Assembly (NCBI GenBank): GCA_964016885.1
Contig: OZ024759.1
Span: forward strand, 16,306,001-16,370,000
Source: Eledone cirrhosa
Taxonomy: Eukaryota
Direction: 5' to 3'
DNA: 64,000 nucleotides
Below, one piece after another: positions 1 through 19,950 of the stretch; position 1 is the stretch's first letter, and every line of letters starts with the position of its first letter. The translations under genes and the position numbers were made by a program. The notes below the pieces were generated by a model, which had not been told where the DNA came from, did not search any database, and worked only from the letters and a program-made list of their open reading frames with translations.

Positions 1-2059
1 CTGTATGAATGCGTTTGTGTGTAGTCAAGTAACCTGATGTAGAGAAAGATTTACCACAGATATCACAATGATATGGTTTCTCTCCTGTATGAATGCGTTT
101 GTGTTTAGTTAAGTCACTTGATGTAGAGGAAGATTTACCACAGATATCACAGTGATATGGTCTCTCTCCTGTATGACTACGTTTGTGTTTAGTCAAGTGA
201 CCTGATACAGAGAATAATTTACCACAGATATCACAGTGATGTGGTTTCTCTCCCGTATGATTGCGTTTGTGTTTAGTTAAGTCACCTGATGCAGAGAATG
301 ATTTACCACAGATATCACAGTGATATGGTTTCTCTCCTGTATGAATGCGCTTGTGTGTAGTCAAGTCACCTGATTTAGAGAAAGATTTACCACAGATATC
401 ACAATGATATGGTTTCTCTCCTGTATGAATGCGCTTGTGTGTAGTCAAATGACCTGATTCAGAGAAAGATTTACCACAGATATCACAATGATATGGTTTC
501 TCTCCTGTATGAATGCGTTTGTGTTTAGTTAAGTCACCTGATTGAGAGAAAGATTTACCACAGATATCACAATGATATGGTTTCTCTCCTGTATGAATGC
601 GTTTGTGTGTAGTCAAGTAACCTGATGTAGAGAAAGATTTACCACAGATATCACAATTATATGGTTTCTCTCCTGTATGAATGCGTTTGTGTGTAGTCAA
701 GTATCTTGATTTAGAGAAAGATTCACCACAGATATCACAGTGATATGGTTTCTCTCCTGTATGAATGCGTTTGTGTGTAGTCAAGTGACCTGATGCAGAG
801 AAAGATTTACCACAGAATTCACAGTGATATGGTTTCTCTCCTGTATGAATGCATTTGTGTTTAGTCAAGTGACCTGATACAGAGAAAGATTTACCACAGA
901 TATCACAATGATATGGTCTCTCTCCTGTATGAATGCGTTTGTGTTTAATTAAGACACCTGATGCAGAGAAAGATTTACCACAGATATCACAATGATATGG
1001 TTTCTCTCCTGTATGAATGCGTTTGTGTTTAGTTAAATCACTTGATGTAGAGGAAGATTTACCACAGATATCACAGTGATATGGTCTCTCTCCTGTATGA
1101 CTACGTTTGTGTTTAGTCAAGTGACCTGATACAGAGAAAGATTTACCACAGATATCACAGTGATGTGGTTTCTCTCCTGTATGAATGCGCATGTGTGTAG
1201 TCAAATGACCTGATTCAGAGAAAGATTTACCACAGATATCACAATGATATGGTTTCTCTCCTGTATGAATGCGTTTGTGTGTAGTCAAGTAACCTGATGT
1301 AGAGAAAGATTTACCACAGATATCACAATTATATGGTTTCTCTCCCGTATGAATGCGTTTGTGTGTAGTCAAATGACCTGATTCAGAGAAAGATTTACCA
1401 CAGATATCACAATGATATGGTTTCTCTCCTGTATGAATGCGTTTGTGTTTAGTTAAGTCACCTGATGTAGAGAAAGATTTACCACAGATATCACAATGAT
1501 ATGGTTTCTCTCCTGTATGAATGCGTTTGTGTTTAGTCAAGTAACCTGATTTAGAGAAAGATTTACCACAGATATCACAGTGATATGGTTTATCTCCTGT
1601 ATGAATGCGTTTGTGACTAGTCAAATCACTAGATACAGAGAAAGATTTACCACAGATATCACAATGATATGGTTTCTCTCCTGTATGAATGCGTTTGTGT
1701 CTAGTTAAGCCACTTGATACAGAGAATGATTTACCACAGATATTACAGTGATATGGTTTCTCTCCTGTATGAATGCGTTTGTGCCTAGGTAAGTCCCTTC
1801 GTCTACAGAAAGATTTACCACAGATATCACAGCAATGTGGTCTCTCTCCTGTATGAATGCGTTTGTGTCTAGTTAATTCAGCTAATATAGAGAATGATTT
1901 ACCACAGATATTACAGTGATATGGTTTCTCTCCTGTATGAATGCATTTATGTTTAGTTAAACTACCTGATGCAGACAATTTACCACAGACATCACAATGA
2001 TATGGATTCTCTCCCATATTAATACGTTTATGGGCAGTGAAGTTACCTCTTGTAGACAT
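1..2059 (-). CDS. C2H2 zinc-finger protein ZNF-A, ~24 tandem fingers, 3' end beyond window
   Basis: 84-bp repeats translate on the minus strand as [28 protein letters not shown] with no stop seen from ATG 2059 (MSTRGNF...) to base 1. It is absent from the ORF track because it runs off the edge. The ancestral N-terminus (~2120-2316) is frameshifted. Confidence 0.88.
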   Translation of the reverse strand, partial: MSTRGNFTAHKRINMGENPYHCDVCGKLSASGSLTKHKCIHTGEKPYHCNICGKSFSILAELTRHKRIHTGERPHCCDICGKSFCRRRDLPRHKRIHTGEKPYHCNICGKSFSVSSGLTRHKRIHTGEKPYHCDICGKSFSVSSDLTSHKRIHTGDKPYHCDICGKSFSKSGYLTKHKRIHTGEKPYHCDICGKSFSTSGDLTKHKRIHTGEKPYHCDICGKSFSESGHLTTHKRIHTGEKPYNCDICGKSFSTSGYLTTHKRIHTGEKPYHCDICGKSFSESGHLTTHMRIHTGEKPHHCDICGKSFSVSGHLTKHKRSHTGERPYHCDICGKSSSTSSDLTKHKRIHTGEKPYHCDICGKSFSASGVLIKHKRIHTGERPYHCDICGKSFSVSGHLTKHKCIHTGEKPYHCEFCGKSFSASGHLTTHKRIHTGEKPYHCDICGESFSKSRYLTTHKRIHTGEKPYNCDICGKSFSTSGYLTTHKRIHTGEKPYHCDICGKSFSQSGDLTKHKRIHTGEKPYHCDICGKSFSESGHLTTHKRIHTGEKPYHCDICGKSFSKSGDLTTHKRIHTGEKPYHCDICGKSFSASGDLTKHKRNHTGEKPHHCDICGKLFSVSGHLTKHKRSHTGERPYHCDICGKSSSTSSDLTKHKRIHTGEKPYHCDICGKSFSTSGYLTTHKRIHT

Positions 2060-2971
2060 TTTACATATAACACAGTGATACAGCTTCTTTCTAGTGTGAA
2101 TAGATTTGTGAGTAGTTAAATTATTGGACACAGAATGATTTATCACAGATATCACAGTGATATAGCTTCTCTCCTGTGTGAATACGTTTGTGAATTGTTA
2201 GATTATGTTTTAGTGAACGACTTCTTACAGATAAGCAATGATAGGATGCTTTTTCTATCTCTTTCAACACCTCATCAGGGAAATCATTCTTTCCAGAATG
2301 ATTCTCACATTTCCATAATTTGTCTTCTCTCACCTCACAATAAATATATAATCCTTTACATCTTATTATTAACAAATATTTCTATTGTCATATTTCCACC
2401 AGTTGCGAATGATGTTGATACCTGAAGACAAGGAAGACACTATTGTATTATAATTGGATTTCCAAACAGTGAAATAAAAAAGATTTGGCTATGAATCTTC
2501 CCGAGGGTAAATACTCCAAAGATTTATATAAAGGATTTTATATCTCTTCTGGTCTTTAAAAGATGATAAATATTCATGATTATACCAATGTTATCCAATA
2601 CTCTGAAATAAGAAAGAAACAGTATAAGATATAAAGGTTACTTTAAAGTAGAAATTTAATGGTGGAAATAATACCACATTTCAATATTAATGGGAATTGT
2701 TGATATAATTTATATCAACATTATATATTATTTATATTAACTCTTTTGTGTTCAGGGGAAATTTTATATTATAAACCTTCCCCTGAACACAAAAGAGTTA
2801 GGACTCCTCCTCAGTTGTGTCCAAGACATGCCAACCTCCCTATTGCAGATGCCATGATAAAATGCAATACACATATATACACATTATATATACTCTCGGG
2901 TCCCAAATAATAGGGGGAGGGGTTAGAAAATCGCAAATTTTTTTAGGTTGTCTCCACGATTAATCCAGATC

Positions 2972-17467: not shown

Positions 17468-19950
17468 TTAGCCTTCAGTATGAGGACATACATGTTTAAT
17501 TAAGTGACTTGTTTGAGAAAATGATTTACCACAGATAACACAGTGATATGGTTTCTCTCCTGTATGAATGCGTTTGTGTGTAGTCAAGTGACCTGATTTA
17601 GAGAAAGATTTACCACAGATATCACAATGATATGGTTTCTCTCCTGTATGAATGCGTTTGTGTGTAGTCAAGTGACCTGATGTAGAGAAAGATTTACCAC
17701 AGATATCACAATGATATGGTTTCTCTCCTGTATGAATGCGTTTGTGTCTAGTCAAGTCACCTGAAGTAGAGAAAGATTTACCACAGATATCACAATGATA
17801 TGGTTTCTCTCCTGTATGAATGCGTTTGTGCCTATGTAAGTCACTTCGTCTACAGAAAGATTTACCACAGATATCACAGCGATGTGGTCTCTCTGCTGTA
17901 TGAATGCGTTTTTGTCTAGTTAAGTCACTTGATACAGATGATTTACCACAGTGATATGGTTTCTCTCCAGTATGAATGCGTTTGTTGTGTTTAGTTAAGT
18001 TACATGATGTAGAGAAAGATTTACCACAGATATCACAGTGATATGGTTTCTCTCCTGTATGACTGCATTTATGTCTAGTTAACTCAGCTAATATAGAGAA
18101 TGATTTACCACAGATATTACAGTGATATGGTTTCTCTCCTGTATGACTGCGTTTGTGTCTAGTCAAGTCACCTGATGCAGGAAATGATTTACCACAGATA
18201 TCACAGTGATATGGTTTCTCTCCTGTATGAATGCGTTTGTGTCTAGTCAAGTGAGCTGATACAGAGAATAATTTACCACAGATATCACAATGATATGGTT
18301 TCTCTCCTGTATGAATGCGTTTGTGTTTCGTTAAGACATCTGATACAGAGAAAGATTTACCACAGATATCACAATGATATGGTTTCTCTCCTGTATGAAT
18401 GCGTTTGTGTGTAGTCAAGCCACCTGATTTAGAGAAGGATTTACCACAGATATCACAGTGATATGGTTTCTCTCCTGTATGAATGCGTTTGTGCGTAGTC
18501 AAGGCATCTGATGTAGAGAAAGATTTACCACAGATATCACAATGATATGGTTTCTCTCCTGTATGAATGCGTTTGTGCCTAGGTAAGTCCCTTCGTCTAC
18601 AGAAAGATTTACCACAGATATCACAGTGATATGGTCTCTCTCCTGTATGACTACGTTTGTGTCTAGTTAAGTCACTTGATACAGAGAATGATTTACCACA
18701 GATATCACAGTGATATGGTTTCTCTCCTGTATGACTGCGTTTGTGTCGAGTTATGTCACTTGATATAGAGAATGATTTACCACAGATATTACAGTGATAT
18801 GGTTTCTCTCCTGTATGAATGCGTTTGTGAGTTGTAAGGGTATGTGTTCGAGAGAAAGATTTACCACAGATATTACAATAATATGGTTTCTCTCCTGTAT
18901 GAATGTGTTTGTGTGTAGTCAAGTGACCTGATTGAGAGAAAGATTTGCCACAGATATCACAGTGATATGGTTTCTCTCCTGTATGAATGCGTTCGTGCCT
19001 AGGTAAGTCACTTCGTCTACAGAAAGATTTACCACAGATATCACAGCGATGTGGTCTCTCTCTTGTATGACTGCGTTTGTGTCTAGTTAAGTCACTTGAT
19101 ACAGAGAATGATTTACCACAGTGATATGGTTTCTCTCCAGTATGAACGCGTTTGTGTGTAGTCAAGTCACCTGATTTAGAGAAAGATTTACCACAGATAT
19201 CACAGTGATGGGGTTTCTCTCCAGTATGAATGCGTTTATGCATGGTCAAGTAACCTGATGTAGAGAAAGATTTACCACAGATATCACAATGATATGGTTT
19301 CTCTCCCGTATGAATGCGTTTGTGTCTAGTCAAGTCACCTGATTTAGAGAATGATTTACCACAGATATCACAGTCATATGGCTTCTCTCCTGTATGAATG
19401 CATTTGTGTCTAGTTATGTCACTTGATATAGAGAATGATTTACCAGAGATATCACAGTGATATGGTTTCTCTCCTGTATGAATGCGTTTGTGTCTAGTCA
19501 AGTCACCTGATACAGAGAATAATTTAACAGATATCACAATGATATGGTTTCTCTCCTGTATGAATGCATTTGTGTCTAGTCAAGTCACCTGATTTAGAGA
19601 ACGATTTACCACAGATATCACAATGATATGGATTTTCTTTGGTATTAATATGTTTATGGGCAGCGACGTTACGTCTTGTAGACAATGGCATTTTACATAT
19701 AACACAGTGATACAGCTTCTTTCTAGTGTCAATAGATTTGTGAGTAGTTAAATTATTGGACAGAGAATGATTTATCACAGATACCACAGTGATATAGCTT
19801 CTCTCCTGTGTGTATACGTTTGTGAGTTGTTAGATTATATGTTTTAGTGAATGACTTCTTACAGATAAGCAATGATAGGATGCTTTTCTATCTCTTTCAA
19901 CACCTCATCAAGGAAATCATTCTTTCTAGAATGATTCTCACATTTCCATA
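17468..19950 (-). pseudogene. C2H2 zinc-finger gene ZNF-B (25-finger ORF 17468-19537, frameshifted 5' part); paralog of ZNF-A
   Basis: 689-codon ORF of TGEKP-linked fingers. The listed start is GTG, created by a 2-bp deletion at ~19527, and the first in-frame ATG is at 19243. It could be a pseudogene, an N-truncated gene or an assembly error. Confidence 0.8.

Follow-up and report, generated by a model that had tools for sequence, protein, structure and literature searches.

A young six-copy family of finger-only C2H2 genes in Eledone cirrhosa with PRDM9-like, probably reshuffled finger arrays

Introduction

Concerted evolution of the fingers is a hallmark of PRDM9 that has also been reported for a molluscan (Lottia) Prdm9, and the similarity among the fingers of mouse Prdm9 is reported to lie far above that of any other zinc-finger gene (PMC2779102). 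C2H2 zinc-finger genes have, in addition, undergone an expansion in coleoid cephalopods; at the level of the whole class, octopus arrays have been predicted to match transposon sequence (PMC10547256), and the gain of specificities with respect to transposons has been called an open question (PMC12513265). The present work concerns two C2H2 zinc-finger genes, ZNF-A and ZNF-B, and their relatives in a stretch of 64,000 nucleotides of the octopod Eledone cirrhosa (assembly GCA_964016885.1, contig OZ024759.1, positions 16,306,001 to 16,370,000; hereafter the window, to which the coordinates below refer).

The original prediction regarded A and B as two young paralogous genes with PRDM9-like dynamics but without KRAB or SET domains. 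The comparison described here indicates that they belong to a young, finger-only family of six copies that draws on a shared, likely reshuffled pool of fingers, and whose products are probably expressed and selected as DNA-binding proteins of changing specificity. In the literature searched, with subscription papers outside its scope, no earlier account of shuffling at the level of fingers was found for the zinc-finger genes of cephalopods. In the available text of the two accounts of the coleoid expansion, finger-level turnover is not addressed: a word search returned neither “gene conversion” nor “PRDM” from PMC12513265, and none of “minisatellite”, “gene conversion” and “PRDM9” from PMC10547256.

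Results

Six tandem copies on one contig

With 160 kb of upstream and 40 kb of downstream DNA included in the comparison, A and B prove to close a row of six tandem units, each of approximately 15 kb, on the same contig (C20). The copies are named U1, U2, U3, U4, A and B, with A the fifth and B the sixth, and their arrays are offset relative to the window by -59 kb, -45 kb, -30 kb, -14 kb, 0 and +17.5 kb, respectively. In this genome of 3.0 Gb, a search with the 5′ region returns exactly six close matches (95-100% identity), all of which lie on C20. The coding frame of ZNF-A (1-2059, minus strand) starts at a new ATG at 2059, extends 260 bases beyond the left edge of the window and encodes 772 aa with 26 canonical fingers; ZNF-B occupies 17468-19691 on the minus strand. 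A and B are indeed young paralogs, but the prediction of two genes missed that there are six copies, that B is frameshifted and that a broken ancestral start is shared by all. Likewise, the flanks of A and B are similar rather than nearly identical, as their identity is only 92-97% in the main blocks and 89% in one block, which is below the 96-99% that mostly holds among U1-U4 and A.

Scrambled finger order within a shared pool

The arrays comprise 17 (U1), 37 (U2), 30 (U3), 18 (U4), 27 (A) and 26 (B) units, and their order differs between copies. The mean unit identity across the six arrays is 85-89%, with a synonymous diversity (pS) of 0.14-0.20. The units of A average 89% identity (pS 0.15) and those of B 86% (pS 0.20), and the earlier description of the units as almost identical even at synonymous sites is therefore not borne out. 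The six arrays together hold 146 full-length units, of which 86 are distinct. An identical twin exists in another copy for 91 units of U1-U4 and A, including all 28 of the 84-bp units of U3, and for none of B.

When up to three mismatches are allowed, nine fingers are colinear between U2 (37 units) and A (27 units), and five units are colinear between A (27) and B (25 compared), in agreement with the proposed lack of colinearity; some pairs of long arrays share just 8-9 colinear fingers. The diagnostic fingers named at the outset lie where they were placed: SILAELTR and CRRRDLPR occur early in A (units 2 and 3) but are units 18 and 12 in B. The recurrent two-finger modules are also found, VSGHLTK+SSTSSDLTK at units 11-12 and 22-23 of A, and the 9-bp-deleted YHCGKS with CRRSDL at units 6-7 and 20-21 of B. 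ZNF-C, a neighbouring gene carried in five of the repeating units, serves as an internal control, as it is fully colinear and 99.2-100% identical in the five, with an identity of 69% among its own units. Because C remains colinear in the same units in which the long arrays are scrambled, the scrambling is specific to the homogeneous array and not regional.

The layout of U3 consists of an A-type start, five U2-type fingers, one triplicated finger and an A-type block that restarts at the first finger; U3 reads as a chimera produced by an unequal crossover. For the recombination tests, the first, last and non-84-bp units were dropped, which leaves 138 units, 81 of them distinct. The four-gamete test is failed by 179 of 561 informative column pairs, and 45 contact types are present among the 138 units. 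A contact residue is changed by only one of 26 private alleles, which suggests that new helices apparently arise mainly from the recombination of existing codons. These sequence comparisons support the occurrence of mosaics inside single fingers, of duplicated blocks and of an exchange of fingers among the copies.

In principle, some copies or finger orders could be products of the assembly, from haplotypes that were wrongly joined or duplicated. U3 and A agree at every base over 671 bp (100%) and at 99.2% over 4 kb, every 84-bp unit of U3 is twinned elsewhere, and the finger orders are known from the assembly alone. However, the copies are distinguished by private insertions and a flank divergence of 1-4%, none of the units of B recurs unchanged elsewhere in the family, the contig is without any N across 264 kb, and the six close 5′ matches are all on C20; an assembly artefact is thus considered very improbable.

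Diversity at the contact residues

As had been predicted, variation is concentrated at helix positions -1, 2, 3 and 6, where the per-position diversity peaks. In the six arrays, the ratio of nonsynonymous diversity (pN) at the contact positions to overall pS is 2.1-3.1, and the ratio elsewhere in the finger is 0.28-0.45. Ten amino acids occur at position -1, the codon of which ends in A in 79 of the 81 distinct units; the heterozygosity at its three codon bases is 0.53/0.74/0.05 in the family versus 0.49/0.48/0.43 in control arrays (described below). Of the 48 family helices, only one recurs in the 1,100 control units, which represent a minor fraction of the genome's fingers; as far as sampled, this indicates that the family helices diversified in place.

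Five of six indel events in the coding frames are in frame, whereas the flanks have nine of 39 (p 0.003). A structural residue is hit, or a stop introduced, by two of 27 private changes, against an expectation of approximately 24% (p 0.027), in a count that includes the stop of U4, which comes from a terminal unit dropped above. Past diversifying selection among the fingers is supported, and present-day selection is weakly supported.

Rank among the arrays of the genome

The contact share, a published statistic defined as the fraction of amino-acid diversity at positions -1, 2, 3 and 6, was scored for 94 arrays, namely, the six of the family and 88 controls from 80 stretches and the local region. 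The controls are the top DNA matches to A, to E (a neighbouring gene) or to the 5′ part of A; they form a partial, biased sample that includes mutual paralogs and favours homogeneous arrays. U3 (0.55), U2 (0.53) and A (0.52) rank first to third of the 94, followed in the family by U4 (0.49) and by U1 and B (0.43 each). The control medians are 0.35-0.36, and 0.49 is reached by two and 0.43 by eight of the 88 controls. Finger pairs with more than 90% identity make up 0.44-0.51 of all pairs in U3, U2 and A (51% in A) and 24% in B, against a control median of 9%, with one broken 8-finger control at 54%.

These values bear on the possibility that the family is functional but is an ordinary young member of the octopod C2H2 genes, with its first rank reflecting youth and homogenisation in a small, biased sample. 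A near-duplicate finger is present in 47 of the 88 controls (36 of the 42 with at least 15 fingers), the unit identity is at least 0.85 in 15, and the contact shares of B and U1 fall within the control tail. On the other hand, U3, U2 and A take the first three ranks in a comparison whose controls favour homogeneous arrays, and their proportion of near-identical pairs is far from the control median. This explanation, which is possible although on balance unlikely, is compatible with the shuffling mechanism and disputes only the specialness of the locus. The family is the strong end of a genome-wide continuum, and many young arrays show a weaker form of the same pattern; the PRDM9-like pattern that was proposed is therefore supported here but is not peculiar to this family.

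Long, homogeneous arrays with contact shares of 0.42-0.50 also occur in further young families of finger-only genes (L029 and L044 on C14; L063, L068, L070 and L071 on C27; L062, L086 and others on C25), which are candidates for the same process. Two further homogeneous arrays (L061:3457 and L041:750) have low contact shares of 0.23 and 0.10, a case of homogenisation without contact diversification.

Comparison with a PRDM9-like gene of the same genome

A search for PR domains led to a gene on another contig (L104:1185-9101; C22, about 11,546,200-11,554,100) that shows a weak match to a zinc knuckle and combines PR/SET exons with a single terminal finger exon of approximately 39 fingers (36 canonical) at 92% unit identity. 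No KRAB or SSXRD domain was found upstream of this gene in 105 of 284 listed frames, in which short exons could escape detection. Its 36 canonical fingers have a contact share of 0.50, and 81% of the finger pairs are more than 90% identical. The nearest PR match on C20 itself lies approximately 2 Mb from the family, and an unplaced contig (C1132:436392-447107) contains a pair of PR-domain matches in inverted orientation, separated by 10 kb; the 30 kb examined there are devoid of finger arrays.

The contact shares of 0.43-0.55, together with mosaics, block duplications and exchange, support the PRDM9-like dynamics that had been proposed for the family. Its contact focus is on a par with that of the PRDM9-like gene, its fingers are less alike, and it does not descend from that gene. 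The arrays might otherwise be orphan copies of a PRDM9 finger exon or mimic PRDM9 specificity, and the helices of both the family and the PRDM9-like gene are often of the form x-S-[G/S]-x-L-T-[T/K]. However, a comparison of the two consensus units gives 28 mismatches in 84 bases, against 9-16 for the nearest ordinary octopod arrays, and the codons used are different. In addition, the dead N-terminus of A and its splice acceptor (see below) align with the neighbouring genes C, D and E, and an origin from PRDM9 or a mimicry of its specificity is thus extremely improbable. Convergence of the helices on those of the PRDM9-like gene was also tested and dropped, as the match is 2.0 of 4 contact residues, near the 1.8-1.9 of the controls.

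Start codons, splicing and domains

In all six copies, an 8-bp deletion immediately follows the ancestral ATG (MEM-stop), and two more frame breaks are present in the first two fingers; in A, the dead N-terminus and the two frameshifted fingers occupy 2060-2316 (minus strand). A later AAA-ATG opens frames of 495 (U1), 1055 (U2), 855 (U3), 493 (U4) and 772 aa (A), and translation would begin at this AAA-ATG, 3′ of the dead N-terminus. In B, a 2-bp deletion near 19526 limits the frame from the ATG at 19691 to just 55 aa. A frame of 591 aa that includes 18 canonical fingers starts at an internal ATG at 19243; B has probably been truncated or disabled.

A splice acceptor (a pyrimidine tract and AG at 2603-2630, minus strand) is conserved in A, B, C, D and E. 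It precedes a last-exon leader of 543 nt with eight upstream ATGs in A (2060-2602, minus strand), and the corresponding leader of B extends from the conserved acceptor at 20234 (19692-20234, minus strand). Between the acceptor and the new ATG, none of the three frames stays open. One contig of sequencing run X4 (depth 8) matches 2477-2602 without mismatch, departs at the conserved acceptor and continues for 158 letters elsewhere, and run X4 has almost no depth at 2638-2809, a region covered by run X1; this pattern, which is expected of a spliced transcript, suggests that the acceptor is used. A comparison with D, E and the upstream DNA in search of an upstream exon of A returned only the acceptor and repeats. 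The depth of an X1 contig on the A-type leader (48-63, versus 13 for an E-type contig) fits several copies; it is not a copy number and was not used as one. The restriction-site-associated DNA sequencing (RAD-seq) run X21 and run X5, which is from another organism, have almost no depth on the unique leader and are uninformative on polymorphism.

The genes were predicted to be without KRAB or SET, and this agrees with the frames scanned. No SET/PR domain was detected among 10 plus 59 reading frames of the window (the 59 from a larger list of open reading frames), and no KRAB or SSXRD domain was detected in the scanned window frames; a genome-wide search for KRAB gave no match but is uninformative because its controls were equally silent. 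The frames are dominated by Pfam zf-C2H2 and zf-H2C2_2 matches with HTGEKP linkers. As no effector domain was found, the proteins would act by occupying DNA or by recruiting partners through the fingers. A homolog search with residues 1-260 of A returned generic, mostly vertebrate zinc-finger proteins, with no close relative among the best 120 matches listed.

Weighing the evidence for function

Several of these observations weigh against an expressed and selected family. The ancestral start is lost in all six copies, B is frameshifted near its start and carries a duplicated Cys-deleted finger, U4 has a stop ahead of its last finger, and the new start of the five intact copies lies behind 7-8 short frames opened by upstream ATGs. 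The evidence for splicing consists of the single depth-8 contig, from a run of unrecorded kind and tissue, and is not assignable to one copy. Recurrent mutation can also break the four-gamete test, and the exact two-parent mosaics, which account for 30 of the 81 distinct internal units, were counted without a null model. For selection, the ratios of pN to pS between fingers have no valid significance test under conversion (PMC5519329), and a contact ratio of at least 2 is found in 29 of the 88 controls, so that the pattern is graded across the genome. The frameshifted B accounts for four of the six coding indels and for most of the synonymous excess, the five youngest copies have nine nonsynonymous to three synonymous private changes, which is neutral-like (p 0.64), and the single private allele at a contact residue leaves present selection on point mutations unsupported.

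Many of these points would be expected if the arrays were a neutral, runaway minisatellite, in which the gene has been dead since its ancestral start broke, similar units mispair and the contact diversity is inherited from a functional ancestor. The three shared 5′ frame breaks, the defects of B and U4 and the private changes of the youngest copies fit this explanation, as does the carriage of the stop-broken C in the same units, and recombination in an 84-bp register keeps the frame without selection. It is at odds with the excess of in-frame indels and the scarcity of structural hits; the conserved acceptor is apparently used, and the intact genes D and E also carry seven upstream ATGs each in the corresponding last exon. 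A purely neutral origin is therefore regarded as doubtful, and a probably expressed and selected family is preferred. Shared translational control or further splicing is suggested by the upstream ATGs of these last exons. Ahead of the family start codon, three upstream ATGs are counted in A (2316-2602), seven in D (30848-31367) and seven in E (44343-44705).

Neighbouring genes and other features

ZNF-C (8738-9573, plus strand) has a short, divergent array with a premature stop shared by the five units. ZNF-D (31367-32110, plus strand) encodes 248 aa with seven divergent fingers, and ZNF-E (44705-45532, plus strand) encodes 276 aa with nine; both retain an intact ancestral start and serve as controls, with contact shares of 0.27 and 0.31. 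Their unit identities of 70% and 75% are in accord with their prior description as short and more divergent. A search with the N-terminal 50 residues of E gave a single hit, to a zinc-finger protein of Octopus vulgaris (76%, E 1e-23); together with the alignment of the dead N-terminus and acceptor of A with C, D and E, it supports kinship with the octopus members of the expansion.

In addition to C, the repeating units include a 49-bp minisatellite of 30 copies (9567-11060, plus strand) and fragments of long interspersed nuclear elements (LINEs). A LINE-type reverse-transcriptase fragment lies in the intron of A (2996-3652, plus strand; RVT_1, E 1.6e-16), with a matching piece upstream of B (20563-21576, plus strand). 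The stretch between the head-to-head genes A and C (4500-7750) is not depleted of CpG (observed/expected 0.7-1.4) and is a candidate shared promoter. The tandem repeats of 48-49 bp at 9567-11060, 30438-30754 and 43381-43700 have a common core motif in opposite orientations, which is also present in 61-bp and 141-bp repeats; all of these probably derive from one dispersed repeat. A 33-bp minisatellite of 13 copies is located at 33502-33940.

Discussion

The 84-bp units of the family form a single pool common to the copies, in which unequal crossover and gene conversion have likely rearranged fingers both inside a copy and from one copy to another. Once approximately 85-89% alike, units could mispair in the 84-bp register, which would homogenise the scaffold and recombine a few codons at positions -1, 2, 3 and 6 into new helices, and the 15-kb tandem context would allow the transfer of whole blocks between copies. 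Varied amino acids at the contact sites would have been advantageous and favoured by selection, as would the upkeep of an open frame. Shuffling thus likely lets the family generate new predicted DNA-binding specificities, and it offers a concrete mechanism for their origin in the very large cephalopod zinc-finger repertoire.

From published predictions at the level of the gene family, repeats would be the likeliest class of DNA target; a proposed role of this family in transposon surveillance is considered rather unlikely. A broader proposal would be that PRDM9-style shuffling serves octopods as a general means of generating diversity in many of their finger-only genes, with this cluster as its most active example, and that a finger library shared and recombined between tandem genes yields individual-specific repertoires that track young transposons without KRAB; this proposal is put forward only tentatively and is judged improbable. 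The locus provides six versions of one gene and a frozen neighbouring gene as a built-in control.

A parallel outside the cephalopods is found in the hemipteran ZF271-like/APEZ genes (PMC6444547), which are likewise KRAB-less and finger-only, have 3-45 repeats in tandem clusters of 4-8 genes, and include pseudogenes and array differences that have been likened to shuffling. They differ in that they belong to an independent lineage and have a variable exon structure, and the published account, in its available part, gives no finger-level measure of concerted evolution. The genes of the coleoid C2H2 expansion resemble the family as finger-only, clustered genes, and the short family N-terminus is as in D and E (PMC12513265, PMC10547256).

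Recent tandem or segmental duplication is shared with the young mouse KRAB-ZFP clusters (PMC11952569) and the mammalian poly-ZF paralogs (PMC2604467), as are copy-specific fingerprint arrays, finger gain and loss, and intermixed pseudogenes. Unlike the mouse clusters, the family is without KRAB. In the mammalian genes as described in PMC2604467, the fingers within a gene are diverse and alignable, with short conversions in few genes, whereas the order in this family is scrambled finger by finger at a flank divergence of under 1-4%.

As in PRDM9 (PMC2779102, PMC5519329), the arrays form an 84-bp coding tandem repeat in the last exon, with interleaved duplicate fingers, a changing finger number and diversity at positions -1, 2, 3 and 6, and the contact shares of 0.43-0.55 overlap values of 0.41-0.68 among those in Table 1 of the published PRDM9 comparison. 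In contrast to PRDM9, the family is without PR/SET, KRAB and SSXRD, its six tandem paralogs trade fingers, and 24-51% of its finger pairs are more than 90% identical, versus 100% in mouse Prdm9. In mouse, extreme concerted evolution has been reported as peculiar to Prdm9 (PMC2779102), yet here genes without SET or KRAB reach the contact-diversity score of the PRDM9-like gene of their own genome, and the PRDM9 statistic alone therefore cannot identify a recombination-directing gene in such genomes. The cluster is real and young, is likely self-shuffling and represents a variant of known poly-zinc-finger dynamics.

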